Positions 16,549 to 36,635 of a stretch of 64,000 nucleotides of DNA are shown piece after piece; positions within the stretch are counted from its first letter, which is position 1, and each line of letters begins with the position of its first letter. A program made the position numbers and the translations under genes. Under the pieces are notes generated by a model. It was given only the letters and a program-made list of their open reading frames with translations. It ran no database searches and was not told where the DNA came from. The stretch is taken from positions 841,040-905,039 of the forward strand of contig JAHQJS010000007.1 of assembly GCA_019057385.1 (NCBI GenBank), written 5' to 3'. The DNA comes from Candidatus Borrarchaeum weybense (GTDB lineage Archaea > Asgardarchaeota > Sifarchaeia > Borrarchaeales > Borrarchaeaceae).

Positions 16549-18399
16549 TCATTTTCTAGAGATCCTATCTTTGTGAGGGATATACATAGATTTAGCATAC
16601 TCTCTTGTAAAATCTGGATCAAGCACAAGTTCCAAATAACGAACTTTTCGGCCAATCTCCTCTGACATTTTCCTAGATTCTTTGGATAGAAGTGCCATCC
16701 TTGCACCGGTTCCCGCAGCGTTCCCTACCGATTTAATTATTTCTATAGGAAAGTTAGGAATCATCCCGATAGTGATGGCTGCCTCTGGATCTACATAGCA
16801 CCCAAAAGCGCCAGCAATAAAAACATGCGCAACATCATCAATTTTAATTCCTTTATTTTTTAATAAAAGTGCGGCTCCGGCATGCATTGCTGCTTTAGCT
16901 AGTTGCAATTGTTTTATATCTTCTTGAGAAATAGCGAGGTTTTCTTCAAGAACTGTTTCATCTTTCCGCAAGAGTATAAATTTAGACTCTCCTTTTTTGT
17001 CGACAATCCTTGGAGTGGGAAGAGAAACGTTTATACGCCCTCTGTGATTTATAATTCCCGCCTTAAACATTTCCGAAAGGGCGTCAATTATTGCTGAACC
17101 ACAGATACCTCTAGGTTTCGCATCATCTATTGTTTTATAGGTGACTTCAAAAGTTACAGGATCGATTTTTAAGCGTTCAATTGCCCCAGTCGATGCACGT
17201 ATTCCATGCTTGATATACGCACCTTCAAAGGCGGGCCCTGATGCACAAGAACACACAAGTATATCATCTTTATTTCCAAGAGCGATTTCTGTATTCGTAC
17301 CAATATCTAAGGTCAAACATATTTCATCAGATTTGTATATTTCTGTAGCTAATATTTCAGCGACTTTATCTCCTCCCACAAAGCCCGCTATTATAGGAAG
17401 AAGGTGAACATTTCCATAAGAATATATATCAAGTTTCAACTTTTCTGTGGGAATATCCAGCGAATTTTTCACCACTGGAACATACGGTGCTATCGGTAAA
17501 TAATCAGAAGGGATACGTAAGAATGTATGATGCATAGCAGTATTTCCGACCGCACAGATCTCATAAACCTCGTATAATTTCACCTCTGCTTTTTCACAAA
17601 GTGACTCTATGAGTTGATTTATTCCTTCAACGATAATATCAGACATTAAATTTGGGTTCTTTGTTGCAAAAGTGATTCTTGAAACAACATCTTCTCCATA
17701 AGGGATTTGCGGATTCATAATAGAGTCAGCAGCCATCAAACTTCCATTATAAAGATTGATCAAATAGGCAGCAATCTTAGTAGTTCCAATATCTAGTGCT
17801 ACCCCATAATTTTTCTCGAATGTCATCCCACGCTCAATATCAATGATCTTTTGGTTATTCCAAATTGTTACGGTCACAACCCAATCTCCATCTCTTAAAA
17901 CGTGAGGAATCTTTTTGAGAATGTTAAAGTCTATTCCAATATTGTGTCCAAGAATGTTATGAACTTCATCCATAATTCGCTCTGCATCAGCTCTAAGATC
18001 CTGAAGAGCTGGTGGGGTCATCTTCAACACTACTTTCTGAACAAACGGATCAAATTCTATAGGAACTTCAATACCTTCAATCTGAAGCCGTTGTTTTCCA
18101 GTTCTGCTGTTTATTGGTATTTCTACAGTGACATTTCCTTTTGGAACTGTGCAACACGCCAATCTGTATCCTTTTTGAATTTCTAGTTGAGTGAGAATTC
18201 TTTTTTCATCATCGGTAATTAGGTTGACAGCATTTTTTTCTGAATTTATTATAATCTTACATTTACCACATATTGCGGTTCCTCCACAAATAGCTTGAAT
18301 ATCTATGCCTCCCTTTATTGCGCCTTCCAATATGGTTTCGCCGTTGGCGATGGTAACCCTTTTTCCATCAGGTTGAAATGTTATTTCACTTTGATTCAT
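16549..18399 (-). CDS. ATP-dependent reductive activator of corrinoid proteins (RACo/RACE; 2Fe-2S + ASKHA)
   Basis: CGGTAICGKC, RLACC, DIGTT, GFVGGD, DIGTNTE, GPAFEG, GICGS, AGAFG, GNAAG. Confidence 0.9.
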   Translation of the reverse strand: MNQSEITFQPDGKRVTIANGETILEGAIKGGIDIQAICGGTAICGKCKIIINSEKNAVNLITDDEKRILTQLEIQKGYRLACCTVPKGNVTVEIPINSRTGKQRLQIEGIEVPIEFDPFVQKVVLKMTPPALQDLRADAERIMDEVHNILGHNIGIDFNILKKIPHVLRDGDWVVTVTIWNNQKIIDIERGMTFEKNYGVALDIGTTKIAAYLINLYNGSLMAADSIMNPQIPYGEDVVSRITFATKNPNLMSDIIVEGINQLIESLCEKAEVKLYEVYEICAVGNTAMHHTFLRIPSDYLPIAPYVPVVKNSLDIPTEKLKLDIYSYGNVHLLPIIAGFVGGDKVAEILATEIYKSDEICLTLDIGTNTEIALGNKDDILVCSCASGPAFEGAYIKHGIRASTGAIERLKIDPVTFEVTYKTIDDAKPRGICGSAIIDALSEMFKAGIINHRGRINVSLPTPRIVDKKGESKFILLRKDETVLEENLAISQEDIKQLQLAKAAMHAGAALLLKNKGIKIDDVAHVFIAGAFGCYVDPEAAITIGMIPNFPIEIIKSVGNAAGTGARMALLSKESRKMSEEIGRKVRYLELVLDPDFTREYAKSMYIPHKDRISRK

Positions 18400-18425
18400 A
18401 GATATATGCTCCGATTATGTATTAT

Positions 18426-19343
18426 TTAGAATATTCTGTAAAGAGGATGGTTCTTGGTTCTAGTTTTTATACGATCTTCTCGCATTGCATATGCAATTAT
18501 TGCATCAGTCATTGCGGCTGCAGGAAATATTATCTCTGCATTTTTTATTGGACCATATAGGATAAAATTGGCTCCTGCATTTTGAAGAATCGTCACACAA
18601 CCTGTCATACATGTTTTCTTTGCATCCATTCCATATTCCTTTAGGCGCGTCCATTGCAGAAGTTGTCTGTATGGTGATCCTCCAGCCGGTAGGCCAAACT
18701 CTTCTTTAATTAAAGGGATTGCTTTAGCCACTAGGCCAACACCTGGTATATCGCAAGGTGACCCATCGATTAACGTATTTTTGACCCCTGATCTCTCTGC
18801 AATTGTTAAAAGACCTTCCTGACGCGAGGTCCCATTTAGTATTTCAACTCTTCCTGCTGGCTTGGGACTCGAGAGATTAAAGGAGTAGATTATAGCAGAG
18901 TCCACCCCTGCCTCTTTTATAGCCATTAATTCCTCTTCTTTTGTAAAATAAGCTATGTGATTATAAACAATTCTATCACTTAAACCTACCTCTGCAGAGT
19001 GTTGGACGGCCGAAATTTTTACATCCATCTGGGGACTATAAAGCAATATAGGAGCATCGGTGAGATTCGCTACAAAATCAATATATTTACAAATGGCTTC
19101 AGGGCTTGTACCTACAACATCTATCATTATAGGGTTGCCGGTTTTTTCCGACAACTCAGATTGTTTTTCTATGAATTCTTCTGCTTTCTGCTTGTCGAAT
19201 GCCCCTGTTTTTTCGTTTTCAACGATTTTATCGCCGTGATAGAAGATTGTTCCAATTAATACAGTAGGGAGTTCTCCTAGCTGTCCGCCCACTTCAACGT
19301 TTCCTATACGAAATACTTTCTGTTCATTCTCAAATTTAAACAC
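18426..19343 (-). CDS. MtrH/MtgA-family methylcorrinoid:pterin methyltransferase, paralog 1 (degenerate motifs)
   Basis: MFKFENEQK...GGQ.GELPTVL.GTIFY...LYGPI...HPLYRIF. Confidence 0.85.
   Translation of the reverse strand: MFKFENEQKVFRIGNVEVGGQLGELPTVLIGTIFYHGDKIVENEKTGAFDKQKAEEFIEKQSELSEKTGNPIMIDVVGTSPEAICKYIDFVANLTDAPILLYSPQMDVKISAVQHSAEVGLSDRIVYNHIAYFTKEEELMAIKEAGVDSAIIYSFNLSSPKPAGRVEILNGTSRQEGLLTIAERSGVKNTLIDGSPCDIPGVGLVAKAIPLIKEEFGLPAGGSPYRQLLQWTRLKEYGMDAKKTCMTGCVTILQNAGANFILYGPIKNAEIIFPAAAMTDAIIAYAMREDRIKTRTKNHPLYRIF
19141..19262. repeat. 122-bp identical tract shared with 20171..20292 (mtrH paralogs)
   Basis: Direct comparison by eye; a second ~80-bp near-identical tract lies at ~18481-18560 / ~19508-19587. 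Confidence 0.85.
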
Positions 19344-19452
19344 GCTGTTCTACTCCTGAAAGAAGAAATGCTTTCCATTAGGGAGTTAAAGACATATTAT
19401 CTCCCAATTCATCGTTTTTAAACCTAAGGACCTTGTTGACTTTTAAAATGAT

Positions 19453-20382
19453 TTAGAAAATCTTGTAAAGTGGGTGTTCTCTAGTTCTCGTTTTAACCTT
19501 ATGTTTTCGCATTGCATATGCAATTATTGCATCAGTCATTGCAGCTGCAGGAAATATTATCTCTGCATTTTTTATTGGACCATATAGAATGAAATCGGCA
19601 CCTGCCCTTTGTAGGACTGTCACAGAACACGCCATACAAATTTTCTTTGCAAGTTTCCCATATTCCTTTACGCGTGTCCATTCTAGGACAGCATTGCAAG
19701 GAGCACCTCCTGCGGGTAGGCCAAATTCCTGTTTAATTAGTGTAGCCGCTTCGGCTACTAGTCCAACACTTGGCACGTCAAACGTTGCTCCATCTATCAA
19801 AGTATTTTCGACCCCTGTTTTCTCAGCAATTTTTAATAGGCTCTGATCGTTTGATTCTTTTCCATACAGCATTTCAAGTCTACCTTTAGGCCATGCATTA
19901 GATGGATTAAAGGTTAAAAGTAACGCGGATTTAACACCTACCTCTTTTATTGCTGTTAATTCCTCCTCGTAGGTCTTGTACCAAATAGAATTATAAACAA
20001 TTCTATTGAGTAAGCCAACTTCTGCAGCGTGTTTGATGCCTTCGATTTTTACATCCATAAACGAACTATCTACTAATATAGGAGCATCTGTGAGATTCGC
20101 TACAAAATCAATATATTTACAGATAGCTTCAGGACTTGTGCCTACAACATCTAGCATTACAGGATTACAAGTTTTTTCCGACAACTCAGATTGTTTTTCT
20201 ATGAATTCTTCTGCTTTCTGCTTGTCGAATGCCCCTGTTTTTTCGTTTTCAACGATTTTATCGCCGTGATAGAAGATTGTTCCAATTAATACGGTAGGTA
20301 ACTCCCCTGGCTGTCCACCCACCTCAACGTCTCCTATATGAAAAATTTTCTGTTCATTCTCAAATTTAAACAAATTTATCAC
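19453..20382 (-). CDS. mtrH: MtrH/MtgA-family methyltransferase, paralog 2 (canonical motifs)
   Basis: GGQPGELPTVLIGTIFY, ILVDSS, YNSI, APCNA, LYGPI, HPLYKIF. Confidence 0.88.
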   Translation of the reverse strand: MINLFKFENEQKIFHIGDVEVGGQPGELPTVLIGTIFYHGDKIVENEKTGAFDKQKAEEFIEKQSELSEKTCNPVMLDVVGTSPEAICKYIDFVANLTDAPILVDSSFMDVKIEGIKHAAEVGLLNRIVYNSIWYKTYEEELTAIKEVGVKSALLLTFNPSNAWPKGRLEMLYGKESNDQSLLKIAEKTGVENTLIDGATFDVPSVGLVAEAATLIKQEFGLPAGGAPCNAVLEWTRVKEYGKLAKKICMACSVTVLQRAGADFILYGPIKNAEIIFPAAAMTDAIIAYAMRKHKVKTRTREHPLYKIF

Positions 20383-20710: not shown

Positions 20711-21073
20711 ATGATGAGAAAAAACCTTATAAGAGATCTAAAGGTGGAAGTTATGGAAATTGCCATAGAGTTTTCAGATGAAGAACTCAAATTAGTAAAA
20801 AAGTTACTAACGAGTAAAAAAGATAAGCGTCCAACAAAAGAAATTTTAGAGGAAAAATTTCGTGATTATAAAATAGGTCTGGTTTTTAGTGCACACCACA
20901 AACTAAGTGAAATTTGTCCAAAGTGCGGCTCAATTGAGACCACACAAGATATGGATTGGAACTCGATTGACGATGGAAATGGAAAAAATATAATATTTTT
21001 AAAATGTAAAAATTGCAGTAACAAATTCAGTATTATTTGGAATCCTTTTGAAACAGATCCCCCCTCATGGTAA
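20711..21073 (+). CDS. Hypothetical protein with C-terminal Zn ribbon (paralog A)
   Basis: CPKCG...CKNC; similar to the adjacent ORF; the real start may be the later ATG (MEIAIEF). Confidence 0.7.
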   Translation: MMRKNLIRDLKVEVMEIAIEFSDEELKLVKKLLTSKKDKRPTKEILEEKFRDYKIGLVFSAHHKLSEICPKCGSIETTQDMDWNSIDDGNGKNIIFLKCKNCSNKFSIIWNPFETDPPSW

Positions 21074-21088
21074 GCAAAGAAACAGTAC

Positions 21089-21469
21089 TTGGTCCTAATG
21101 AATAAAAAAATAAATGGAGCACTTGTTATGAATAGTCTAAGGGAATCATTGAAAATAAAAGTAATTTTCTCAAAAGAAGAAATCGAAATATTCAAAAACC
21201 TATTAGAAGGGAGAAAAGAAATACGCCCTCTAAAAAAGATCTTGGAAGAGAAAATAACAGAATACCAATTAGGACTAATTTATAATGCAAAAGTAATACT
21301 GAATGATGCCTGCCCAAGCTGCGGGTCACTAAACACAAAAGAGGATCATAATCGTCCGCCGACACTCACAAAGGGTGGAAATTTTATAATATATCGCCAA
21401 TGTTGCGAATGTAACACAAAATTCAGTGCACATTTTATACCATCCTTCGAAGCTGACTATAGTATTTAA
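21089..21469 (+). CDS. Hypothetical protein with C-terminal Zn ribbon (paralog B)
   Basis: CPSCG...CCEC; shares FS.EE, RP.K.ILEEK..Y..GL and KFS with paralog A; start uncertain. Confidence 0.7.
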   Translation: MVLMNKKINGALVMNSLRESLKIKVIFSKEEIEIFKNLLEGRKEIRPLKKILEEKITEYQLGLIYNAKVILNDACPSCGSLNTKEDHNRPPTLTKGGNFIIYRQCCECNTKFSAHFIPSFEADYSI

Positions 21470-21651: not shown

Positions 21652-22626
21652 TTGTTAAAATTTGAAAAGCCACAAGAAATATTTAGAATTGGTAATGTTG
21701 AGATCGGAGGGCAACCTGGAGAATTGCCTACCGTATTAGTTGGAAGCATATTCTATTATAAAGATAGAATTGTTGAGAACCAACATCAAGGTATTTTTAA
21801 GAAGAAAGAAGCACTACGAATAATCAATAAGGTAGATACCATATCCATGAAGACAGGAAATCCCTACGTGATAGATATAGAAGCAATTAGTAATCGTTCA
21901 ATTGAAAAATTCATAGACTTTGTTTCGGAAGTAACAGAGGCACCCTTTTTTATAAATAGCACTAATATCCCAGTCAGGCTACATGGTGCCAAGTACGTAA
22001 ATGAAAAAGGTCTCCAAAATAGGACAATCTACGCTTCTATAAATTTCAAGGTAGAAAAAAGTGAAATTGAAGTGCTAGAACAATCAAAAATAGATGCTGT
22101 ACTAGTTCAAGCATTTAACCCTCAAAACCCGTGGTCTAAAGGAATGATGAAGATTATGAGAGAGGGACTCAATGGAGAAGGACTTGTAGATATGGTAATA
22201 AAGGCAGGAATAAAAAAACCCCTCCTCTTTGCAAACATCTACGATGTACCGAGCATTGGTATCGGTGGAGAAACTGTCTACATGTTAAAAAATGAGTTTG
22301 GTTTGCCGAGTGGTACAGCTCCGGTGGGTGTAGTCGGTGTATGGGGGAAAACGAAAGAGGCCAAAGAACTATATGCGCAAATAACCAGTATTTGTGGCGC
22401 AAACGCCGCAGTTTTCTCAAAACTCATGGGATCAGATTATATACATTACGGTTCTTTGAAAAGAGCCGCAAAAATTTTTCCATCAGTTGCCATGATTGAT
22501 GCTATAATAGCTTATAATGCAAAGTTATACGGAGTTGAACCAAAGATAATAACACCTGCCTTACAAGATTTTTTTGATACTCCTGACAAAACAGTACCTC
22601 CGAAATACTTGCACGCTGAAAATTAA
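21652..22626 (+). CDS. MtrH/MtgA-family methyltransferase, paralog 3 (divergent)
   Basis: MLKFEKPQEIFRIG..GGQPGELPTVLVGSIFY; GGGAG SD upstream. Confidence 0.82.
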   Translation: MLKFEKPQEIFRIGNVEIGGQPGELPTVLVGSIFYYKDRIVENQHQGIFKKKEALRIINKVDTISMKTGNPYVIDIEAISNRSIEKFIDFVSEVTEAPFFINSTNIPVRLHGAKYVNEKGLQNRTIYASINFKVEKSEIEVLEQSKIDAVLVQAFNPQNPWSKGMMKIMREGLNGEGLVDMVIKAGIKKPLLFANIYDVPSIGIGGETVYMLKNEFGLPSGTAPVGVVGVWGKTKEAKELYAQITSICGANAAVFSKLMGSDYIHYGSLKRAAKIFPSVAMIDAIIAYNAKLYGVEPKIITPALQDFFDTPDKTVPPKYLHAEN

Positions 22627-22818: not shown

Positions 22819-24546
22819 TTAGAAGACTGTATATTTTTTCTCGTGATCTTTATACTGTGGCAAATGGCTCGCAGACAAAAAGCCAGGCAATTGTCGCCCT
22901 ATGGCATCGGGGGGGATCTCTTCTTTCTTTTCCTTTTTTAAATTGAGCATATCGTCAATCCTCAAAATCGATATAGCTGTCTCACACGCTCCTTTGAATA
23001 TTGCTTTAGTAACTGCCAATGGCATAATGATACCAGCGTTCATCATATTATCAATTTTCTTACCTAACGCATTATATCCATACCACATATTGGCAGACTG
23101 TTGATGTTCCGCAATGAGGAAAGGTAGAATATCTAATGAATTCAACCCTGTATTTGTCACCAACGCTCTTGGAATGCAAAGCAGAGCATCTGCAAAGGCT
23201 TTTACAGCAAATTGTTCCTTACCGTGAAATTCTCGTGAAAACTCTGTCAGTCGTTTTTTCAATTCTACCTCAACAGCCCCGCCGCCAGCAACTATCTTAT
23301 TACATTTGAAAAGATTTGCTGTAGCGTAAAGAACATCAAGCACTGTTTTTTCGACATCCTCCATTATTTCTTTCGAAATGCCACGTATTAATATACACAC
23401 TGATTGCGGGGTTTTGCATCCCTCAATAACAACAATTTTATTATCACCAACTTTTCTCTCCTCAACCAAATTGGCTGATCCTAAATCCTCTTCCTTTAAG
23501 TCGTCAAGATCTCTAACTATATTTGCATTACAAGCCTTGGCAACCCTTAGTATAAATTTTTGCTTTGCAGCCCATCGATATAGTGTTACAGCCATAATTC
23601 CAGCTCTGGCCAGAAAATATGCCGCCAAATCATCAATACGTTTTTCACAGAAAACAACGTTTGCACCTGCTGCCTTTATCTTATTTACCCAATCTTTTAA
23701 GATCTGTGCCTTCTTATCTATGAAAGGTTTGATTAATTCTGGATTATTTATTTCAATCTTTCCCTGAACTGTAGGAGGGTGATGTTCAAGTTTTTCTATC
23801 TCTAAAGGATGAGTAAGAACTGCAATCTTCGGATTTTTGACGTGCTTCGGCATTTGTGGATGAATCAATTGTTCATCCATAACCATTCCGCGTACAAAAA
23901 TTGAATCGTTAACGGTCTTACCAGGTTTTTTAACGATATGAACCAGATCAATATTAGCAATCCAGTTGTTGTCTCTTTTTTCCTTGATTCGTTCAATAAC
24001 ATCAAGAACGATATCTGTTAATACTAAACTAGCCTTTGCACCCAGTTTGGTAGACATGATGGTATAGACTACTTTTTTGAGAATCTTTCTATCAGCAGAC
24101 TCTATTTCTACTGCAATCTCGTCCAGAATCCTAAGTGCTTTCTTTAATGCCTCCTTGTATCCATGAATAATAATTGAAGGATGTATCTTATCGTCTAATA
24201 GTCTCTCTGCGCGTTCTAGAAACTCGCTTGCTAATACAACGGACGAAATAGAGCCATCACCCGTTGTATCCTTTTGAGCGGTTGCCAAATGGATCAGAAT
24301 CTTTGCTACAGGATGCCATATGCTCATTCTTTTAAGTATCGTTGCCCCATCACAAGAGATAATGAAGTATTTGAGACTATCTACAAGGAACTTCTTCGAA
24401 CCGCTAGGACCAAGACTTTTCTGTAGAATAGCTCTAATTATCTTTGCGATCAAAATATTACTCTTTACTAACTCTGAGCCATTTAACTGACTTATACCTT
24501 CTCTAATCAGTGGAGAAGTCATTAGTGCAGCATCTATGTTTGACAT
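22819..24546 (-). CDS. Divergent group II chaperonin (thermosome-like) subunit
   Basis: SLGPSG, DGATIL, HPVAK, GDGSIS, IHPSIII.GY, AGGGAVE, ILRIDD; ATG 24546 follows a GGTGA SD. Confidence 0.85.
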   Translation of the reverse strand: MSNIDAALMTSPLIREGISQLNGSELVKSNILIAKIIRAILQKSLGPSGSKKFLVDSLKYFIISCDGATILKRMSIWHPVAKILIHLATAQKDTTGDGSISSVVLASEFLERAERLLDDKIHPSIIIHGYKEALKKALRILDEIAVEIESADRKILKKVVYTIMSTKLGAKASLVLTDIVLDVIERIKEKRDNNWIANIDLVHIVKKPGKTVNDSIFVRGMVMDEQLIHPQMPKHVKNPKIAVLTHPLEIEKLEHHPPTVQGKIEINNPELIKPFIDKKAQILKDWVNKIKAAGANVVFCEKRIDDLAAYFLARAGIMAVTLYRWAAKQKFILRVAKACNANIVRDLDDLKEEDLGSANLVEERKVGDNKIVVIEGCKTPQSVCILIRGISKEIMEDVEKTVLDVLYATANLFKCNKIVAGGGAVEVELKKRLTEFSREFHGKEQFAVKAFADALLCIPRALVTNTGLNSLDILPFLIAEHQQSANMWYGYNALGKKIDNMMNAGIIMPLAVTKAIFKGACETAISILRIDDMLNLKKEKKEEIPPDAIGRQLPGFLSASHLPQYKDHEKKYTVF

Positions 24547-25146
24547 CTCTCTCACCTATGCTATTCTTACTCGAAACTTAATGATTATCATACCGATCAA
24601 TGAATCCAGTCCTTTTACTTATATTATTTCAGAAATCACTTTGCTAATGACTCCATATACCTTTTTGTGCAAAATCACATTTTTGAAAGATTTTAAGAAT
24701 GTATTTAAGACGTCATTTTACATGTTTGTAAATAATTTACTTGGAACTAAGCCATAGATTGCACTTTCCTTTGATTTGCAAATAAAGGACTAACTCACTT
24801 TGGCTTTAAGCAAATTTCAAAAAGATTCTATAAATTCACAATATATAGAGATACAAGTCTGGGAATGAAACGAGGAGTTATTCTCGAAGAGCTGGAGAGG
24901 CAGCATATATATATACTTATGCGTTGGCAAACACCAGAGTTCAAAACTGTTTTGATCCTCCCTTTTAATTTTGAGGATATGTACATTCATTGATAGGTTC
25001 ATTTGAGCAAAGAGCAATCCGAGGTGGTAATTGTCTACTATCAAATGTTATAAAGTTTTTTACTCGAACGAATACGCCAATAACTCAAGAGGAATTTTGT
25101 AGGGATCGTCTCTTTGCAAGGCTTAGTGTGATTGTACATGCATATA

Positions 25147-25593
25147 CTACGATTTACTTTTTTTTCTTCTTTTTTTAAATGAAAGTAAACAATTCTGAAA
25201 TTCATCAAAAGATTTTTTGGAAATAATGCCGATTAAATTACCATCGTCATCAACCACACAAAGCCTGTTTATCGTAGTCCTCTCGAATTGGGACGCAATA
25301 TCAAAGACTCTATCATTTGAGAATACGGAATATATGGACGACACCATCACATCTTTTGCTATAAATTCGCAAGGATTCTTGCCTTCCGAGATTAATTTGA
25401 CAATTACTCCTTCGGTAATAATACCAACAGGCTTGTTCGAGTTTATAACAAGAATGCTATCAACCTGATGGCTGATCATTAATTCAGCAACTTTTGTTAA
25501 GTTATCTTCCAGATCACATGTAACAATATCTATAACCATATCAATCGCTAAGGGAGCGATCTTATTAATTTCTTCACTCATTTTCTTCACCAT
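25147..25593 (-). CDS. CBS-domain pair protein
   Basis: PVGIITE, RLCVVDDDGNLIGIIS. Confidence 0.8.
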   Translation of the reverse strand: MVKKMSEEINKIAPLAIDMVIDIVTCDLEDNLTKVAELMISHQVDSILVINSNKPVGIITEGVIVKLISEGKNPCEFIAKDVMVSSIYSVFSNDRVFDIASQFERTTINRLCVVDDDGNLIGIISKKSFDEFQNCLLSFKKRRKKSKS

Positions 25594-26988: not shown

Positions 26989-27630
26989 TTAAACTGCTCC
27001 TATTAGTCTTTTACACTCGCGTACAGCATCAGCTGCATCTCTGCCGAATCCGTCCGCATTGTATTGAATTAACATATCACGATATGCGCCAGCACCACCG
27101 ATTATATATTTTACTTTGTCCCTAACACCAGCCTCAGTAAGTGCCTTCTCAATTGCTGGAAGCTCTATATCAGCTGTTGATGTAGAATAGGCGGAAGCCC
27201 CAATTAACTCTGGGTTGTATTTCTTTATTGCCTCAACGAATTTTTCAGGATAGACATCTGAGCCCAAATCAATGACTTTAAATCCAGCACCTCTCAGAAA
27301 TGCACCAACAAGGTTTTTTCCGATGTCATGAACATCTCCTCTAACAACTCCAAGAACTATCGTCGCAATAAAATCTGCGTTACCACTTTTTTCCAATTCA
27401 GGAAGGACAATATTCAGGGATTTTTTCGCAGCTTCACCAACCATCATTAGATCAGCAATGAAGTACTCTTTTTGCTCAAGTCTTTTCCCTGCAACTGTCA
27501 AGCCATTTTTCATCGCATCGATGACTTCCATTGGCTTTGCACCTTCATTAACCGCACGTTTTGTCAGCGCTTCTGCATCGTCATCTTCGCCCTCAAGAAT
27601 AGCGTTTTCTAAGTCCTTTAAAGTAGACAT
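26989..27630 (-). CDS. Methyltransferase cognate corrinoid protein (MtaC/MtbC-like)
   Basis: Cap domain plus GDVHDIGKNLV, DLG.DV, IIGGA. Confidence 0.92.
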   Translation of the reverse strand: MSTLKDLENAILEGEDDDAEALTKRAVNEGAKPMEVIDAMKNGLTVAGKRLEQKEYFIADLMMVGEAAKKSLNIVLPELEKSGNADFIATIVLGVVRGDVHDIGKNLVGAFLRGAGFKVIDLGSDVYPEKFVEAIKKYNPELIGASAYSTSTADIELPAIEKALTEAGVRDKVKYIIGGAGAYRDMLIQYNADGFGRDAADAVRECKRLIGAV

Positions 27631-28286
27631 TTTTTCTATCTCTCCTAGTTTTGATCCATTTTACATATTTTTTGGATGAACCTCTATTTTCAAGAAGTCC
27701 ATTTAAGTTATAGCGAATTATTATTATAGTTTTACTATAAAAAGTTTATTACTTAATAATAATTTTTTTGTATTTATGATATAATTTATTATAATTATGA
27801 ATATGCTTTTTTCAAATAACAATTTAATACATCCAATCCTGGTGTTTCCTTTTTACGAAAAAATCGTACTATGAAGTCGGTATTCTACATCGGATCGATA
27901 TTCATTCGGGCGAGCCCTTCAGGGTATTTTAATAAAGAATAATTTTCTTACAATTAGTTTATAAGCTCCGCGTAGTGTAAAAATATAAGAATGCCAATAT
28001 TAACGGAAAGAAGTCACAGGTTACATTCTGCATGTGAAACTGGCATAACAAGAAGGATCCTTTGTCAGTTGCATATTTTATTTGAGCTCCTGCAAATCAA
28101 CCAATTTCACTCTTTAAAGGATTAATGGAATCGTGAATTCAAACATTTTAAAAATGTACTTACCTTAATACTTATAAATATGGATTAGATTTTTATTATA
28201 ATTAGTTTGTATTTCCCTAATATAATATTTGAAAACGAGATTATGTAGCGGAAACTATTATTCGCATTATCTATAGAGTGATTGCA

Positions 28287-29423
28287 ATGGACGTATCGAT
28301 ACTCAAAATTAAGGAAGACCTTTTAGAAAAGGTAAAACTAGCAGTAATTGATGGCAACGATATTATAATCGGTAAATATATATTAAACGTATTGAATTCG
28401 AACATTCCAAATCCATTTGACTCTATTATGACCGTTCTTATTGAAGGCATTAAAAGAGTTGCAGATATGTACGAAACAGGAGAATGTGAGCTGCCAGATT
28501 TGATACTAGCGGGGGAATCACTCAAAGAAGCACTTAGTATTATAACAAATAACGTGCGCGACCCCTCTAGTTTTTTACAAATAAAAAAAGGAAAAGTTAT
28601 CCTAGGAACTGTAGAAGGTGACACTCATGATATCGGCAAAAATGTCGTTGCAGCCATGCTTCAAGCTAATGGTTTTGAAGTTATAGATCTCGGACAGAAC
28701 GTACCACCTCAGATATTCGTCGAAAAGGCAGTAGAAGAAAAGGCGAATATTATAGGGGCCTCTTCATTTATGTCAAGCACTAGAAATTCTCAAAAAAAGA
28801 TTTTAGAAGAATTAGAAAAGGTGGGACTTAGAGATAAAATTATTTTTCTCATCGGTGGGGCTGCGGTCTCAAAAGATTATGCCAAAACGATTGGTGCAGA
28901 TGGATATGCGAAAGACGCTTTTGAGACAGTTGAACTGCTTGAGGGCTTGGTTAATAACCAAAAGAAAATTACACCAGAAAAAAATCACAAATTATTACTT
29001 AAAATGGAAGAAAACAGAAAAATGATTGAACAATTAGCTGATCAAGTCAAACAGTTTCAAGATATTATTGGGAAGACAACTAGTAGAGAAGTGAATGTTG
29101 ATAAAAGTCGCCTTTTAATTTCGCAGAAGTTCATAAATGTCAAAAATATAACGTTTTCAGAAGAAAAGGTTTACAAAATATTATCAAGTTTGTCCAACAA
29201 AGTTCGCTTAAGGGTTCTTATGGCTCTATGGCAAAAACCTTTACATTTTTCCGAAATCGAAGAAGTCATATCAGTTAAAGGCGGTCATCTTCAATTTCAC
29301 GTGGGAAAATTAAAAAACGAAGGATTAATTGAACAAAAGAAGAACCGAGGAAAATACTCAGTTACTCAAAAAGGCAAAAAAGTAATAATGATAACAAGTC
29401 AATTATCATCGCTTGAGAATTAA
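28287..29423 (+). CDS. Corrinoid-binding protein fused to a C-terminal ArsR-type winged-helix DNA-binding domain
   Basis: Cap domain plus GDTHDIGKNVV, coiled-coil linker, then LSNKVRLRVL...FSEIEE...GHLQFHVGKLKNEGLI...GKYSVTQKG. Confidence 0.82.
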   Translation: MDVSILKIKEDLLEKVKLAVIDGNDIIIGKYILNVLNSNIPNPFDSIMTVLIEGIKRVADMYETGECELPDLILAGESLKEALSIITNNVRDPSSFLQIKKGKVILGTVEGDTHDIGKNVVAAMLQANGFEVIDLGQNVPPQIFVEKAVEEKANIIGASSFMSSTRNSQKKILEELEKVGLRDKIIFLIGGAAVSKDYAKTIGADGYAKDAFETVELLEGLVNNQKKITPEKNHKLLLKMEENRKMIEQLADQVKQFQDIIGKTTSREVNVDKSRLLISQKFINVKNITFSEEKVYKILSSLSNKVRLRVLMALWQKPLHFSEIEEVISVKGGHLQFHVGKLKNEGLIEQKKNRGKYSVTQKGKKVIMITSQLSSLEN

Positions 29424-29454
29424 CACACACTTAGAATATTCTTGGCAAGAGTAA

Positions 29455-30276: not shown

Positions 30277-30960
30277 TCAAATATTATATTCGCAGTGTTG
30301 GGTAAGAGATTCACCGCTAAAAGATTTCTTTCGGTATTCACAAGTTCTTGGACAATATTGGCAGGCAAAGTATTCTTCTGGTGTGGCCGCGAAAATGCCT
30401 GAAAGTGATTTTCTAGGTATCATTAAAAAACTGGGCGTAAGATGAACCCCTATAGTCCCAGTCGGATTCAAAATCTGAAAAATAACCTCTTGTTGCTTGA
30501 TATCAAAGAGTTTACCTGTTCCAGATCCCGGAGTAAAGTTGGATATTGTGCTTCCCAATTTTTCTTTCATTAAAGATCTGACGTAGGCAGCTGCTTTCTC
30601 TACTGCGTAATCTGCTATACACTCCATGATAAATCCTCGAAGTATGCTACTTTTAGTTTCTTCTGAAGCTTTTTTTTCCAGTCCTGGTCCAATTGTAACT
30701 ATATAGGGAACTACTGTTTGATTAACTTTTAATACTTCACCAAGGATCGAACTCTTTAGAATGTATTCGCTTTCTAATTGGATTTCATCCTTCTTAATAC
30801 TAGTCACTTTTAATAAGGTGTATACTGTCGTAGGTTCAATCAATCGACGGCAGTCCTCTATAAGCGGTACTACTTTCGTCTCCTTCATTCTTCTGTTTTT
30901 TAGAGTTCGTATTAAGTCCCTAGCATCTAAATCAATAGGTATGAAATCAATTACTTCCAC
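30277..30960 (-). CDS. B12-dependent methionine synthase reactivation-domain-like protein, paralog 1
   Basis: YIVTIG..LE, F.PG.G, IGV.LT.SFLMIPRKSLSGI, C-terminal CQYCPRTCEYR. Confidence 0.75.
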   Translation of the reverse strand: MEVIDFIPIDLDARDLIRTLKNRRMKETKVVPLIEDCRRLIEPTTVYTLLKVTSIKKDEIQLESEYILKSSILGEVLKVNQTVVPYIVTIGPGLEKKASEETKSSILRGFIMECIADYAVEKAAAYVRSLMKEKLGSTISNFTPGSGTGKLFDIKQQEVIFQILNPTGTIGVHLTPSFLMIPRKSLSGIFAATPEEYFACQYCPRTCEYRKKSFSGESLTQHCEYNI

Positions 30961-31791
30961 GAAAACGCCTCCTTAATTAAAGCAATTGTGAGTTTGTGGC
31001 GGAAGTTCTGTATCCCTGGAAGTAATATAAGAATATCGGGTCTAAATAAAAGGAGTCCGTTTTCAATACCCGATAAAACTTTATAACAATGTCACATCCT
31101 TTTGCAAGAGACTTGAGGGACACCATACTCACTTTGTCGATAGTCTCTAGCGCATTATCCAATAGGCTTCTCAAATTAGTAAGATTTGCTTTCTTCTCTT
31201 CTAATTGCAACGAGAAGAATTTCTGAGAATTCATCCACAGACTCAAGCTCGTGGCTTTCTTGAGGTGTCTCATAAGAAAAAATAGGTACTTATTTTGAAT
31301 AATGAAGGTAGGCACACCCAGGATCATGTAAAGGAGAGATAGACTTTATCAAAATCCATTGGAGGGATATGCCTACCTTAGGTGCGACCACTTCATTGCT
31401 GTATAAAAGTCTTATTGTACAACATTCAGCAATCAAATCCTTCTGAAATAAGTTACAATTTAGTATGTTTTCTGCGTCGAAGTCGAAGCGAGGGGCATCG
31501 ATAATAAATTTGAAGATTATAAAAGAGAGATATAGAACAAAATGGGTGATACTAGAGGATAAAAAAGACAATAAAAATCAACATATTGCAAAAACTTACG
31601 TTTTAAGATTTCGTTCATATTCATTCGATTTGTAGTTTACTCAGGAAAATTTTATATCCATAAACCTTAATATTACATCTCTACAAATTTTTTATTAATG
31701 TACTAGAAGTTTTATATAAGTCTGAAAAACTTGTGATATTTGAAGAGCACAATTATTAGAAATATTATCTCACAAGAAGGTGATATTACAT

Positions 31792-32622
31792 TTGATAAAA
31801 ATCTCCATCGTTAAAGCGGGTAATATCGCTACGTCAACAGTTATTGATATTATTTTAGATGAACGAGCTCATAGAGAAGACATCATGATTAGAACCTTTG
31901 GCACTGGCTCAAAAATGCAATTAGAGTATATTAAAGAGGTTGTAGAAATTGCTGTTGCCATTGATCCCGATTTACTAATTTTTGTAGGACCAAATATTTC
32001 CTCAAAACGGAATATAGAAACTGCAAATATCTTAAAAGAATTAAATATGCCAATTATTTTGATAGGAGATGCAAAAGACCTCAAGATTACTGAAATACTA
32101 GATTCATTCAATATCGGTTATATTATTTTGGAAGGCGATCCGTTACTTGGGGCTAAAAGAGCAATACTTGATTCTACAGAAATGGTATTATTTAATGCTA
32201 ATATATTGAAAGTGCTTTCAGTCTCGGGAACAATCCGTTTATTGCAACATGAATTGAATAAAGTAATCACTAGTCTGAAAGATAAAGGAATCCATCTCCC
32301 TAAAATAATAGTGAGTTCTGATCTTGCACTGCAATATGCTGGTATCAAAAATCCCTACGCTCATGCAAAAGCAAAAGCCGCCTACGAAATGAATATCCTA
32401 GTCCACAAGTTAAATTACCAAGGTTGTTTTGTTCTTAAGAAGAAAGATGAATACATCCCCTGTGTAATTAGTGCACATGAATTGGCGGAGTCCGCTGCAG
32501 ACCTGGCGCAAACAGCAAGGAATATTGAAAAAATCAATGATTCTATTTTAAGAGATCCCCATGATCGATTTGGACAAATATTGAAAAAGACAAGTCTCTA
32601 TGAAGATTTATCTGTCATTTAA
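31792..32622 (+). CDS. mtd: F420-dependent methylene-H4MPT dehydrogenase
   Basis: K.GNIATS..ID..LDERA.REDI, GTGSKM, GAKRA.LD.TEM, NPYA.AKA, QGCF, SAHE, R.PH; TTG 31792 follows a GGTGA SD. Confidence 0.9.
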   Translation: MIKISIVKAGNIATSTVIDIILDERAHREDIMIRTFGTGSKMQLEYIKEVVEIAVAIDPDLLIFVGPNISSKRNIETANILKELNMPIILIGDAKDLKITEILDSFNIGYIILEGDPLLGAKRAILDSTEMVLFNANILKVLSVSGTIRLLQHELNKVITSLKDKGIHLPKIIVSSDLALQYAGIKNPYAHAKAKAAYEMNILVHKLNYQGCFVLKKKDEYIPCVISAHELAESAADLAQTARNIEKINDSILRDPHDRFGQILKKTSLYEDLSVI

Positions 32623-32829: not shown

Positions 32830-33762
32830 ATGATAGAAAAATTTGACATTATCATCATAGGTGCGGGGTGTGCTGGTCTAGCTGCTGGGATATACGCTGG
32901 GCGTTTTGGATTAAGCACTGCGATATTTGATAAACAACTTCCTGGTGGTCAGATAAACCTCACGGATGTTGTTGAAAACTACCCTGGATATGAAATGATA
33001 TCAGGACAAGATCTATCAGAGATAATGGTGAAGCAAGTAGAGAATGCCGGTGCAAAAATCTTTGAATTTGAAGAGATTCGTGATTTAGATCTCTCGCAAC
33101 CAATAAAAAAGGTAGTTAGTGAGATGGGAGAATACGAAGCTAAGGTTGTAATTCTTACAACAGGATCAAATTACAGAAGATTAGGTATTCCTGGTGAGAA
33201 AGAATATACAGGAAAAGGCGTGAGTTATTGTGCAACGTGTGATGGCCAACTTTATAAAAAAAAGAAGGTCATAACAGTTGGGGGAGGAGATGTCGCTGCA
33301 ACTTATACAAGATATCTTAAAGAAATTGACGTTAATGTGCGTTTAGTCCATAGAAGAGATCAATTACGTGCTAAAGAATCATTGCAAAAGGATTTAGAGC
33401 GTCTTGGTGTCGAGATTATCTGGGATACTATAGTTACAGAAATCTTTGGCGATGATGAAAGCGTTACTGGTGCGAAACTGAAAAACATCAATACAAGTGA
33501 AGAAACAAAAATGGAGCTGGATGGCGTTTTTATCCATATCGGGAGCCTGCCAACTAACGACTTATCCAAAAAAGCGGGTATTGAACTTGACGAGCGTGGA
33601 TACATTATTGTCAATAAAAAGAATGAAACAAATATACTAGGAATTTATGCTGCAGGAGATAATACTGGAAGTGAAGCTCAGTTAGCGATAGTAGTTGGTG
33701 AAGGTGTTAATGCCGCTATCCATGCCTATCAGTATATAAAAGGGGGATGGAATGGCTCTTGA
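32830..33762 (+). CDS. trxB: Thioredoxin reductase
   Basis: IIGAG.AGL, ENYPG, GVSYCATCDG, VHRRD, YAAGD. Confidence 0.88.
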   Translation: MIEKFDIIIIGAGCAGLAAGIYAGRFGLSTAIFDKQLPGGQINLTDVVENYPGYEMISGQDLSEIMVKQVENAGAKIFEFEEIRDLDLSQPIKKVVSEMGEYEAKVVILTTGSNYRRLGIPGEKEYTGKGVSYCATCDGQLYKKKKVITVGGGDVAATYTRYLKEIDVNVRLVHRRDQLRAKESLQKDLERLGVEIIWDTIVTEIFGDDESVTGAKLKNINTSEETKMELDGVFIHIGSLPTNDLSKKAGIELDERGYIIVNKKNETNILGIYAAGDNTGSEAQLAIVVGEGVNAAIHAYQYIKGGWNGS

Positions 33763-33868
33763 ACGAAACTACTACTAGATACTGGCTTCCTATTTCACAA
33801 ACAATACTTGATTTCGTTAAAGGTGCTTTTATCATTAATGAAAACTGAACAAAGAAATCATTTCGAGC

Positions 33869-34552
33869 TCAATAGGTATCTTGTTCACATTGGTGACCAA
33901 TATACTCGCCGCTGTACTCTTTCCTTCTATGTTCACACTTACGAGGGCAGTATTCACACGTCACATAATCATTAGGAGTTGCAGCAAAAACTCCTGAGAT
34001 TGATTTTTTGGGCAACATTAAATAAGTTGGCGTAAGACGGACTCCGATTGTATTTGGATCTATGATCTTAAATAATACTTCTTGCTGATTGATATTAAAG
34101 AGTCTACCTGTACCTGTTCCTGGTGAAAAATTGTTTATATCGTTCCCTAGTTTTTCCTTAGCTAGAGAGCTTATATAAAGCCTTGCCTTATCTAAAACAT
34201 AATCTGCTATCTGTTCCATAACGAATGCTTTAAGGATATTAATCTTTGACTCTTTTGATGTATATGTTTCAAGTTGAGATCCTATTGTAACAACATGAGG
34301 AACAATTGTTTGATCATTTTCTACTGAGTCTCCAAGGATTATACTCTTTATACTGTATCCATTGTCTACTTGGATCTCGGAATTATTAACCTTGGTTACT
34401 TGCACGAACTTGTAAACAGCTTTTGGCTCAATTAGTTCTATACATTCATCTATAAGCGGTACAACATCTTTTTCTCTTATCCTTCTTTTACCTAGTGTTT
34501 CCAGTAAATCATCAACATCCAATTCGAAAGGGATAGGATCGATTACTTCCAT
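33869..34552 (-). CDS. B12-dependent methionine synthase reactivation-domain-like protein, paralog 2
   Basis: Clear paralog of 30277..30960; LMLPKKSISG, CEYCPRKCEHR. Confidence 0.75.
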   Translation of the reverse strand: MEVIDPIPFELDVDDLLETLGKRRIREKDVVPLIDECIELIEPKAVYKFVQVTKVNNSEIQVDNGYSIKSIILGDSVENDQTIVPHVVTIGSQLETYTSKESKINILKAFVMEQIADYVLDKARLYISSLAKEKLGNDINNFSPGTGTGRLFNINQQEVLFKIIDPNTIGVRLTPTYLMLPKKSISGVFAATPNDYVTCEYCPRKCEHRRKEYSGEYIGHQCEQDTY

Positions 34553-34721
34553 GGCAACGCTCTCCTTAATTTACATAAACTCAATTCATTGTAGATGATA
34601 TATTGCCAGTGACATATAACAATTTCGATATAACAGTTGAGGTTGATCAATTCATTTAGGAATATATCAAAACCAAAAAGATTAGTAAAACTTTAAATAA
34701 TGATGATGAACGACATCTGAG

Positions 34722-36635
34722 ATGAGGCATTTAAATCAAGAGTCATTTAAAATTGAGGGACCTGTATTGCCAAAATACTGCAAAATCGTTTTACAGCCTA
34801 GTGGGCGTCGAGGGACGTTTCCCTGCGAAACAAATCTTCTAACTGCAGCATTAGAACTTGGTGAACCCATTGAATCGTTATGCGGAGGTAAAGGCTCCTG
34901 CGGAAAATGCATGGTTTTTATTAATAAGGGAATTGAGAATATTTCTGATTTAACTGATATCGAAAAGCAGATTTTAACAGAACAAGAAATCTCACAACAC
35001 TATCGCCTTGCCTGTATGACAAAGGCTATCGGGGACGTAGAAGTCACTGTTCCCGAAGAAAGTCGACGTAGAGAACAAGTAATTCTGACTGAAGGTCGAA
35101 AGACTGATTTCACCATAGATCCGACTGTTAAAAAATATTTCTTAACCATACCTTTACCATCATTAGAGGATCTTTTGGCAGACCAAGAAAGACTTGCAAA
35201 GATTCTCGCACAAACTCATGGCTTGGAGAACTTGACCATCGATTTCCCTTTGGTTAAAAGATTGCCTAAATTGCTAAGAGAAAACAAGGGAAAAATTGCT
35301 GTAACTGTATGGAATGATCAGGAAATCATTGATATAGAGCCTGAGAACGCCTCAAAGAGTTATGGATTAGCCATAGATATTGGCACGACGACTGTTGTTG
35401 TCTACCTACTCGAACTCGATACCGGTAATCTCATCGGAATAGAGTCGATGACGAATCCACAAGTCACTTTTGGTGAAGATATTATCTCTAGAATATCCTA
35501 TGTAATAAATAATTTAGATGGTCTTCAGAGACTTGGAGATATCATAGTAACAGGGATCAATAGCTTGATCGAGCAATTAGCCAAGAAACACAAAATAGAC
35601 TATAATCAAATTGTAGAAGTCACTATCGTTGGTAATTCAGTTATGCATCATCTCTTCTTGAAAATTACACCAGAATTTATAGGTAGATCGCCTTTTGTAC
35701 CAGTTACCCACAATTCAATGACGCTGAAAGCAAGGGATGTAGGGATAACTGTCAATCCTTCAGGGTATGTGCATATGTTGCCTATCGAGGCTGGATTTGT
35801 TGGTGCAGATAATGTCGGCGTATTAATAGCGACTGAAATTTACAAATCTCCAGATGTTTCGCTCGTTATTGACATCGGTACAAATGGAGAACTCGTTCTG
35901 GGCAATAACGAAAAACTCTTTTCAGTCTCAACAGCCGCAGGACCTGCTCTTGAAGGGGCTCATATCAAATTTGGAATGCGAGCTGCTGCTGGGGCAATTG
36001 AACGCGTGAAAATTGATGAAACCTTTGAACCGAAATATAAAACAATCGGTGATGAGAAACCGAGAGGAATCTGCGGTTCAGGCATTATCGATATCATTGC
36101 AGAATTATTTCGCGTTGGTATAATTGAGAAAAACGGCCGTTTTGCAGATTTAGACACTCCTCGCCTACGTAGAAACAATAAAGTAAATGAATATATCTTA
36201 GAATGGGCTTCAGAAGCTGCAATAAATTCAGATATTGTAATTACACAGAAAGATGTCAGAGAAGTTCAACTAGCTAAAGGTGCAATGTATGCGGGTGCTG
36301 TTATCTTAATGAATAAATTCGGTTGTACAAAACTAGATAGAATAATGCTTGCAGGAGCTTTCGGTAATTATATAGATAAGAAGTCTGGAATGTTGATAGG
36401 CTTATATCCTGATTGCGATTTAGAAAATGTTGTTAGCATTGGGAACGCTGCAGGTGAAGGAGCTATAATGGCATTGTTGTCAAAGGAGAAAAGAGGAGAA
36501 GCTATGCGGATTGCAAGATCTGTGCAATATGTTGAACTTACCCTAGAAGAAGATTTTGAACCTGAATTTATGAACGCAATGTACTTTCCTCATAGGACAG
36601 ATGATTTCCCTCATCTTAAAGAAATACTTGATTAA
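34722..36635 (+). CDS. ATP-dependent reductive activator of corrinoid proteins, second copy
   Basis: CGGKGSCGKC, RLAC, DIGTTT, GFVGAD, DIGTNGE, GPALEG, AGAFG. Confidence 0.9.
   Translation: MRHLNQESFKIEGPVLPKYCKIVLQPSGRRGTFPCETNLLTAALELGEPIESLCGGKGSCGKCMVFINKGIENISDLTDIEKQILTEQEISQHYRLACMTKAIGDVEVTVPEESRRREQVILTEGRKTDFTIDPTVKKYFLTIPLPSLEDLLADQERLAKILAQTHGLENLTIDFPLVKRLPKLLRENKGKIAVTVWNDQEIIDIEPENASKSYGLAIDIGTTTVVVYLLELDTGNLIGIESMTNPQVTFGEDIISRISYVINNLDGLQRLGDIIVTGINSLIEQLAKKHKIDYNQIVEVTIVGNSVMHHLFLKITPEFIGRSPFVPVTHNSMTLKARDVGITVNPSGYVHMLPIEAGFVGADNVGVLIATEIYKSPDVSLVIDIGTNGELVLGNNEKLFSVSTAAGPALEGAHIKFGMRAAAGAIERVKIDETFEPKYKTIGDEKPRGICGSGIIDIIAELFRVGIIEKNGRFADLDTPRLRRNNKVNEYILEWASEAAINSDIVITQKDVREVQLAKGAMYAGAVILMNKFGCTKLDRIMLAGAFGNYIDKKSGMLIGLYPDCDLENVVSIGNAAGEGAIMALLSKEKRGEAMRIARSVQYVELTLEEDFEPEFMNAMYFPHRTDDFPHLKEILD

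Follow-up and report, generated by a model that had tools for sequence, protein, structure and literature searches.

Which methylated compound, if any, is used by the corrinoid-related genes that are crowded between positions 16549 and 36635 of a 64,000-nucleotide stretch of DNA from the sediment archaeon Candidatus Borrarchaeum weybense? The stretch, hereafter called the window, covers positions 841,040–905,039 of contig JAHQJS010000007.1 (assembly GCA_019057385.1). Asgard archaea are numerous in anoxic sediments; how they gain energy has mostly been deduced from genome sequences. An earlier note on the window had read these genes as a self-contained corrinoid methyl-transfer island for an uncharacterised substrate. 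Family assignments were made by Pfam and NCBIfam scans of the open reading frames of the window; they confirmed every gene listed in that note at its coordinates, with weak matches for two MetH-like proteins. Our analysis favors, with reasonable rather than high confidence, a corrinoid-dependent methyl-transfer system with the component plan of MtoABCD, in which the UroD-fold protein MT1 would act on the donor side. The Mto-type plan is known; new is the very rare clade of MT1 in a non-methanogenic Asgard genus.

Fold, rarity and phylogeny of MT1

MT1 (25710–26972, minus strand) is a putative zinc-less methyltransferase of UroD fold. It scored over the threshold of the Pfam URO-D family (PF01208; 67.9 versus 23.9 bits), but far under the cut-off of the NCBIfam MtaA/CmuA family (TIGR01463; 29.5 versus 235.4 bits). 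Sequence searches against solved structures gave no significant match to MT1. An AlphaFold2 model, built from a 64-sequence alignment, reached a predicted local distance difference test (pLDDT) score of 93. In a Foldseek comparison with solved structures, from which those of CdmB (9RUI and related) were absent, the top match of the model was MtaA (4AY7; template modelling (TM) score 0.85 by target length); UroD structures came next, with TM scores of 0.71–0.78. Like MtaA, MtbA, MtsA and CmuA, which also act with a corrinoid protein, MT1 has the UroD-like TIM-barrel fold. Different from them, it is placed in a separate clade of our tree and has its zinc ligands replaced: in the 64-sequence alignment, the columns of the MtaA-like H-x-C...C motif are occupied by R284, Y286 and T374. 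As judged from this alignment, MT1 has no thiol-activating zinc site of the MtaA type. Many of its aromatic residues are invariant.

The relatives of MT1 are very few. Among 5.8 billion clusters, a word-indexed search returned only 17, with 42–88% identity, whether the query was the single protein or a profile. Exhaustive HMMER search of 1.84 billion representatives gave 848 proteins that reach an E-value of 0.001; the whole MT1 family is covered by one representative at 714 bits, and the next match has 248 bits. The family was present in two of the 400 Asgard genomes searched, the source genome and that of B. yapensis, and in one of 401 genomes of the phylum of Thermacetogenium. Within the same 400 Asgard genomes, a sister clade (170–188 bits) occurs in one other genus, also beside a corrinoid protein. 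A search of the ESM Atlas returned generic URO-D clusters only. Members of the MT1 clade were found in a single Asgard genus and a small number of anaerobic bacteria.

The maximum-likelihood tree contained 74 sequences, all unnamed representatives with no named reference and no named decarboxylase among them, and used the best URO-D match of the genome (own_L009) as outgroup. In this tree the MT1 family is fully supported, has a long stem and splits into 6 archaeal and 11 bacterial sequences. It is nested in a supported clade of 59 rows, made up of uncharacterised UroD-superfamily proteins that adjoin corrinoid proteins wherever the neighbourhood was inspected. The family lies apart from MtaA/CmuA-like representatives, from the other paralogs of the genome and from its best URO-D match (214 bits, on another contig). 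Grouping with true decarboxylases had been named earlier as the outcome that would speak against methyl transfer; in the 74-sequence tree, which holds no named decarboxylase, MT1 does not group with the best URO-D match of the genome.

Motif searches found none of the signature motifs of MtoB, CdmB or MtvB in MT1, and none of those of MtoB in its relatives. Welte et al. counted proteins as MtoB orthologues from 35% identity upwards. The relatives of MT1 with at least 42% identity make up the 17 unnamed clusters, and none of those named by source comes from Archaeoglobus or Methermicoccus. We saw no sign in these sequences that MT1 is an orthologue of MtoB or CdmB. The description of its substrate as uncharacterised agrees with these results. 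Judged by its sequence relationships, the MT1 clade is a tiny, sharply separated, very rare and newly recognised branch of the UroD superfamily. Elsewhere in the genome there is a 471-residue UroD-like protein (L027), in which no MtoB or CdmB motifs were found.

Conserved neighbourhood and methyl-transfer partners

The gene of the cognate corrinoid protein (26989–27630, minus strand) precedes MT1 by 16 nt in the same orientation. As identified by Pfam and NCBIfam, the protein consists of a B12-binding_2 cap and a B12-binding Rossmann domain; its DxHxxG motif reads DVHDIG (residues 99–104). With a single MT1 protein as query no related locus was retrieved, whereas an alignment query returned four, located in B. 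yapensis, in a Desulfovibrionaceae metagenome-assembled genome (MAG), in Thermacetogenium UBA5472 and in a Coriobacteriales MAG. The four loci were compared with the window by tblastn of the window proteins and by Pfam scans of the neighbouring genes.

Ca. B. yapensis is the nearest public genome and, by its genome-search label, belongs to the same genus. Its gene order is ECF ATPase, a second corrinoid/UroD-like pair, RACo1, MtrH_a, MtrH_b, corrinoid protein and MT1, followed by the CBS protein, thermosome, MtrH_c, two zinc-ribbon proteins, corrinoid-helix-turn-helix (HTH) fusion and Mtd; it is the gene set of the window in a rearranged order. In the Desulfovibrionaceae MAG, the corrinoid protein and MT1 are followed by an AmiS/UreI channel, MtrH, RACo, DUF1638, a B12-binding histidine kinase and an AraC-type response regulator. 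The Thermacetogenium locus starts with a sigma-54 activator and continues with corrinoid protein, MT1, MtrH and DUF1638, then with a second corrinoid/UroD-like pair, a B12-type ABC transporter and DUF364. The Coriobacteriales locus consists of corrinoid protein, MT1 and MtrH in that order. Because the order corrinoid protein-MT1-MtrH recurs in three bacterial lineages, one of which includes RACo, and the set recurs in B. yapensis, the clustering goes beyond chance. The functional unit is formed by the corrinoid protein, MT1, an MtrH-type methyl-corrinoid:pterin methyltransferase (MT2) and an activase, and it is kept across two domains.

The partners of MT1 differ in their affinities. The corrinoid protein shares 46–48% identity with its bacterial partners, compared to 36% with a paralog in its own genome; MtrH_b, described below, shares 47% identity with an own-genome paralog, compared to 39–40% with the bacterial partners. 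Since the corrinoid protein is closer to bacteria and MtrH_b to its own genome, these identities suggest that the corrinoid protein and MT1 moved between domains as a pair, which uses an MT2 of host type. The term self-contained island holds in part: the corrinoid protein and MT1 pair alone looks exchanged with bacteria, whereas the reading as a mobile genomic island was rejected on the even guanine and cytosine content throughout the region and on the gene set common to the congener.

Apart from one AmiS/UreI channel, we found no substrate transporter in the four loci, and no transporter of the major facilitator superfamily (MFS) either. The channel, of a family for small neutral amides or urea, is confined to one bacterial locus, where its gene (L003 11327–11818) separates MT1 from MtrH; for the identity of the donor it is a weak hint. 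The second corrinoid/UroD-like pairs lie beside the MT1 system at 3237–4998 of the B. yapensis locus (L002) and at 7894–9737 of the Thermacetogenium locus (L004). Their UroD-like proteins fall in different sub-clades, and the source genome has no such pair between the ECF ATPase and RACo1.

Three MtrH-family genes are present in the cluster: MtrH_a (18426–19343, minus strand; Pfam MtrH, 303 bits), MtrH_b (19453–20382, minus strand; 312 bits) and the divergent MtrH_c (21652–22626, plus strand; 260 bits), which is under both NCBIfam mtrH cut-offs. MtrH_b exceeds the TIGR01114 mtrH cut-off (290.8 versus 271.4 bits) and matches MtgA of Desulfitobacterium hafniense (6SJ8), a methylcorrinoid:tetrahydrofolate methyltransferase, over the full length with 258 bits. 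The motifs xDSx, YNSI and APxNAV are common to MtgA, the bacterial partners and the other MtrH of the genome; MtrH_b keeps them as LVDSS, YNSI and APCNAV. In MtrH_a they are altered to LLYSP, YNHI and PYRQL, and in MtrH_c all three are changed, to FINST, YASI and PVGVV. Both sets of changes are also found in the B. yapensis orthologues. We take the altered residues to be ones that contact the pterin in this class of enzyme. On these motifs, MtrH_b is likely the working MT2 of the cluster. The earlier description of three MtrH/MtgA paralogs is correct as to the MtrH family, but the motifs shared with MtgA are retained in MtrH_b only. Different from the host of MtgA, Borrarchaeum uses tetrahydromethanopterin (H4MPT) enzymes such as Mtd. 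Despite their differing protein motifs, MtrH_a and MtrH_b (18421–20289) share long DNA tracts of 77–88% identity, with exact runs of 22 and 28 nt (families D1–D4), and gene conversion between the tandem paralogs may have produced them.

The reductive activase RACo1 (16549–18399, minus strand) stands at the end of the MtrH_b-MtrH_a-RACo1 run. It contains a 2Fe-2S ferredoxin domain and an ASKHA ATPase (Pfam Fer2, RACo_linker, Raco_middle and RACo_C_ter), and its score against NCBIfam AcsV, 510 bits, is under the cut-off of 800. RACo1 is 74% identical to its counterpart in B. yapensis, 35% to the bacterial partner and 44% to RACo2 (34722–36635, plus strand), the second activase of the cluster, which gives the same four-domain Pfam match. 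Two MetH activation-domain-like proteins are encoded as well, the first with a Cys-rich C-terminus (30277–30960, minus strand) and the second divergent from RACo2 (33869–34552, minus strand). Their Met_synt_B12 (PF02965) matches are weak, at 38.2 and 26.6 bits, respectively; the two are paralogs of 55% identity, and a role as accessories to corrinoid reactivation is possible.

A corrinoid-protein module fused to an ArsR-like winged HTH domain (28278–29423, plus strand; Pfam B12-binding_2, B12-binding and DUF7347/HTH_5) is divergently transcribed from the corrinoid protein-MT1 operon. It carries a DTHDIG motif and is 70% identical in B. yapensis; it is likely the regulator of the system. In the Desulfovibrionaceae MAG (L003 15422–18900), the genes after the MT1 operon encode a histidine kinase, which has a corrinoid-protein module at its N-terminus, and the AraC-type response regulator. 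This kinase may be the bacterial counterpart of the HTH fusion, which hints at a shared sensing logic. The motif GGAGAGATAGA was observed at 16217–16238, 27635–27657 and 31321–31343 of the window; in two of these copies, GGATC precedes the motif by a few bases. One sense copy stands just before the start codon of the corrinoid protein and spans the ribosome-binding site; the other two are intergenic and on the opposite strand (inverted pairs I19 and I21).

Known systems, direction of transfer and candidate donors

The source genome measures 4.18 Mb in 8 contigs, with estimates of 100% completeness and 7% contamination, and the window is the end of contig 7. McrA was found nowhere in the 4.18 Mb, and the genome has no Mtr complex; MtrA occurs solely in an MtrA-MtrH fusion on another contig. 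The absence of mcr and mtrA-G reported for the window thus extends, this fusion apart, to the whole genome. The fusion is a 509-residue open frame (G000:C6:269540-270973) in a genome without methyl-coenzyme M reductase (MCR) and without other Mtr subunits, and it resembles the MtrA-MtrH fusions discussed for Atabeyarchaeia and Freyarchaeia (PMC11291895). CdhC of the carbon monoxide dehydrogenase/acetyl-CoA synthase (CODH/ACS) is encoded. As there is no MCR while CdhC and Mtd are present, a non-methanogenic fate of the methyl group, as put forward in the earlier note, is plausible. At the level of shared sequence words, near-identical DNA was matched in sediment and marine sediment metagenomes of 3 studies; the one RNA run listed contained only 0.11 of the words.

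MtoABCD of Methermicoccus shengliensis and Archaeoglobus fulgidus transfers methyl groups from methoxy-aromatics to H4MPT (PMC8359953, PMC8630106), and in A. fulgidus, a non-methanogen, a set of four such components serves to load H4MPT, presumably through its MtrH-type MT2 (PMC8359953). Like in MtoABCD, a UroD-superfamily MT1 stands beside a corrinoid protein, an MtrH-type MT2 and a RACo-type activase; all three partners are present in the Borrarchaeum cluster, again in a non-methanogenic archaeon with the H4MPT Wood–Ljungdahl pathway (PMC8359953, PMC8630106). Different from MtoABCD, the Borrarchaeum MT1 belongs to another, rare clade without MtoB-type motifs, its loci are without the MFS transporters of mto clusters (PMC8359953), and the cluster adds two extra motif-altered MtrH, a second activase, two MetH activation-domain-like proteins and the corrinoid-HTH fusion. 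The four-component layout noted earlier is present, in its Mto form, and conserved across domains, but MtgABCD, named alongside it, is a loose comparison. MtgB, the MT1 of that system, is presumably an MttB-family protein and not of UroD fold.

A second comparison is CdmBCA, the three-component chloromethane system of Acetobacterium dehalogenans described in 2026, whose MT1 is a zinc-less member of the UroD superfamily (PMC13222342). CdmB is MtoB-like (31% identity to MtoB); it binds no metal and has an aromatic-lined cavity, activation of the leaving group being unnecessary. Together with MtvB, it is a precedent for a UroD-superfamily MT1 without zinc. Homologues of CdmB occur in Asgard Sigynarchaeales and in anaerobic bacteria, with suspected inter-domain transfer, and haloalkane methyltransferases were argued to have evolved several times in the superfamily (PMC13222342). 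The Borrarchaeum cluster is likewise a corrinoid system with a putatively zinc-less MT1 next to the corrinoid protein, found in Asgard archaea and anaerobic bacteria. However, its MT2 genes are MtrH-type whereas CdmA is MtqA-like, and the Asgard CdmB homologues are MtoB-like proteins of another order, Sigynarchaeales, with no Borrarchaeales entry in the tables of that paper (PMC13222342). It is by motifs, MT2 type and these tables, rather than by direct sequence or structure alignment, that MT1 is set apart from CdmB.

The mec cassette for dichloromethane combines the corrinoid protein MecB and the UroD-family MecC with MtrH-type MecF and the activating pair MecG-MecH, which shares its domain organisation with corrinoid-reactivating protein pairs (10.1101/2021.08.30.458270). 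Its hosts are Dehalobacterium, Dehalobacter and Ca. Formimonas, and it also includes MecE. Similar to the MT1 loci, a corrinoid protein is immediately followed by a UroD-family protein, and an MtrH-type enzyme and a RACo activase are present. We infer that MecG is a DUF1638 protein, the domain being unnamed in the preprint; DUF1638 genes are also found in bacterial MT1 loci, beside RACo in Desulfovibrionaceae or after MtrH in Thermacetogenium. MecC shares short motifs such as EAEILGC, TEGR and YGTFPI with the MT1 clade, as read by eye in the supplement of PMC13222342, and about 25% identity with MT1, by an estimate likewise made by eye. Compared to mec, the Borrarchaeum cluster lacks an MtaA/CmuA partner of MecE type, a MecJ antiporter and a PocR-type kinase. 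None of the 150 best MT1 matches proved MecC-like in fuzzy motif searches, and no MecC motif was found in the 401 genomes of the phylum of Thermacetogenium sampled with the MT1 profile, a sample in which counts of reductive dehalogenases revealed no Dehalobacter-like genomes. When metagenomes were scanned with a query that carries an 11-residue motif from the C-terminus of MecE, the loci retrieved were MtaA-like and had neither MtrH nor MecC. At most, MecC is a member of the wider clade of MT1.

Taken together, these comparisons allow a route of the methyl group to be proposed. MT1 would bring the methylated donor to the neighbouring corrinoid protein in its Co(I) state, giving CH3-Co(III), and MtrH_b would pass the methyl group on to H4MPT. 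Corrinoid oxidized to Co(II) would be re-reduced by RACo1 or RACo2, perhaps aided by the two MetH activation-domain-like proteins. CH3-H4MPT could then enter the H4MPT Wood–Ljungdahl route, feeding CODH/ACS and also oxidation via a reductase of uncertain identity and then Mtd. We infer the direction of transfer, H4MPT as the acceptor and the role of the regulator from the gene content. A donor-side role fits MT1, because the protein is apart from the best URO-D match of the genome and without the thiol-activating zinc site. On this reading the organism probably feeds on a methylated compound.

Several points weigh against this route. MtrH_a and MtrH_c, with their altered motifs, have had no role assigned to them; the match to Mer is below its cut-off (158 versus 348.7 bits), so that the oxidative branch is incompletely accounted for; and contamination of the genome bin is estimated at 7%, though the contig itself is plainly archaeal and shares synteny with Borrarchaeum. 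In addition, the same set of components could work in the opposite direction. Beside corrinoid proteins, UroD-fold proteins can be acceptor-side enzymes, for example MtaA, and MecC is reportedly assigned an acceptor-side role. In such a case MtrH_b would load the corrinoid protein from CH3-H4MPT, and MT1 would methylate some acceptor, possibly in a soluble, MCR-independent counterpart of the Mtr-type reaction or in a biosynthetic or detoxifying methylation. That MtaA, an acceptor-side enzyme, is the solved structure most similar to MT1 speaks for this flow, as does the MtrA-MtrH fusion of the genome, of the kind discussed for other Asgard archaea (PMC11291895). However, MT1 has neither the H-x-C...C zinc site for thiol acceptors nor an adequate MtaA/CmuA score (29.5 versus 235.4 bits), the corrinoid-paired enzyme is donor-side in the mtoBC and cdmBC pairs (PMC8359953, PMC13222342), and no use for a methylated cofactor is evident where MCR is missing. 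We consider reverse flow unlikely. Far less probable still is a chance neighbourhood of paralogous B12-related genes around a tetrapyrrole decarboxylase. The URO-D gathering score of MT1 (67.9 bits) and the tetrapyrrole and cobamide genes nearby would suit it, but the corrinoid-MT1 pair is kept with a nearby MtrH in four lineages of two domains, and the tree puts MT1 far from the best URO-D match (214 bits). MT1 as a true decarboxylase was rejected on this conserved corrinoid-linked neighbourhood and on its position in the tree of unnamed representatives.

If MT1 is a donor-side enzyme, as we favor, its donor need not be of a new class. MT1 might be an archaeal O-demethylase, an analogue of MtoB for methoxylated aromatics. 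Thermacetogenium species use such compounds. The four-component plan is that of MtoABCD (PMC8359953, PMC8630106), and zinc-less examples such as MtvB exist (PMC13222342). On the other hand, MT1 has none of the MtoB, CdmB or MtvB motifs, nothing but 17 unnamed clusters is related to it at more than 40% identity, and no MFS transporter stands in the four loci, unlike in mto clusters (PMC8359953); moreover, the example of CdmB shows that proximity of clades does not reveal the substrate. The O-demethylase is a possibility we hold doubtful. A methyltransferase that dehalogenates halomethanes (CH3Cl or CH3Br), arisen independently of CdmB, CmuA and MecE, is a slightly better, still tentative, candidate. 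It is consistent with the repeated origin of haloalkane enzymes in the UroD superfamily and the metal-free, aromatic-lined CdmB (PMC13222342), with the absent zinc site and many invariant aromatics of MT1, with the lack of a substrate transporter in the loci, with the near-identical DNA in sediment and marine sediment metagenomes and with the short motifs in common with MecC, read by eye. Nevertheless, this evidence is circumstantial; the vicinity has no MecJ-like transporter of chloride or protons, and the MecC cluster is not among the 150 best representatives, which indicates no special closeness.

As rough odds over all donors, no class reaches an even chance: halomethanes lead, methoxylated aromatics come close behind, other compounds follow, and methylated sulfur compounds and, last, small N-methyl amides or amines are less probable. 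The lack of a substrate transporter, the missing zinc site and the many invariant aromatics lean towards a small, neutral and membrane-permeant donor. More speculatively, and with less than even confidence in the whole, the observations could be joined in one picture. The MT1 clade would serve methylotrophy on a donor class new to UroD-fold enzymes, probably a small neutral compound; its corrinoid protein and MT1 module would have passed between anaerobic bacteria and a single Asgard genus and been combined with the pterin methyltransferases of each host, under corrinoid-module sensors (the winged-HTH fusion and the bacterial B12-binding histidine kinase); and the motif-altered MtrH pair would have acquired a new, non-pterin function.

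A complete and apparently regulated system of this kind in a non-methanogenic Asgard genus would be a testable route by which these archaea might rival methanogens and acetogens in the use of methylated compounds. The UroD superfamily was recently shown to include unexpected haloalkane enzymes, and the MT1 clade, paired with its corrinoid protein, is a clean target for a new substrate specificity within it. The cross-domain corrinoid protein and MT1 pair would also be a case of modular transfer between folate- and methanopterin-based one-carbon metabolism. Elsewhere in the genome, a second methyltransferase set was noticed (L006 5327–8399; G000:C6:451326-454398), in which a motif-intact MtrH is divergent from a 387-residue UroD-family protein and a corrinoid protein.

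Other genes of the region

Several further genes of the cluster are shared with B. yapensis. Directly downstream of MT1 lies a CBS-pair protein (25147–25593, minus strand; Pfam CBS), which is 59% identical and in the same position there. Two paralogous small proteins of 120 and 126 residues (20711–21469, plus strand) have a C-terminal CxxC...CxxC zinc ribbon with weak matches to zinc-ribbon Pfam families, and both are kept beside MtrH_c. Mtd, the F420-dependent methylene-H4MPT dehydrogenase (31780–32622, plus strand; Pfam MTD, 309.9 bits), is 93% identical; it is followed in the window by a thioredoxin-reductase-like flavoprotein (32830–33762, plus strand; Pfam Pyr_redox_2, 166 bits). The thermosome paralog (22819–24555, minus strand; Pfam Cpn60_TCP1, 484 bits) is syntenic in B. 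yapensis and is the most divergent of the four paralogs of the genome, the others scoring 534–640 bits. From this synteny and divergence one might conjecture a thermosome dedicated to methyl transfer; the chaperonin of its own with which the system had been credited goes further than these two observations.

The adjoining cobamide salvage locus pointed out earlier is real. CbiB (4609–5691; Pfam CobD_Cbib, 283 bits) and CbiZ (5722–6405; Pfam CbiZ, 200 bits), both on the plus strand, are assigned to cobinamide salvage and remodelling. A CobT-type phosphoribosyltransferase (9143–10204; Pfam DBI_PRT, 466 bits) and a class I/II aminotransferase (11962–13071; Pfam Aminotran_1_2), in a context of cobamide salvage and uptake, are encoded on the minus strand, as are a 200-residue protein with no family match (13120–13722), the ECF component CbiQ (13743–14573; Pfam CbiQ) and a double ABC ATPase of ECF type (14588–16099; Pfam ABC_tran twice), which is 93% identical and syntenic in B. 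yapensis.

Beyond the cluster, a DUF364/DUF4213 protein is encoded 3 kb past its end (39477–40295, minus strand). The same family is found at 14014–14838 (minus strand) of the Thermacetogenium locus (L004), where it adjoins the B12-type ABC transporter by MT1; it may be another corrinoid-linked gene. Further downstream, at 53129–60992 on the plus strand of the window, two tandem hybrid histidine kinases of 1191 and 1296 residues carry many PAS domains and C-terminal receiver domains.

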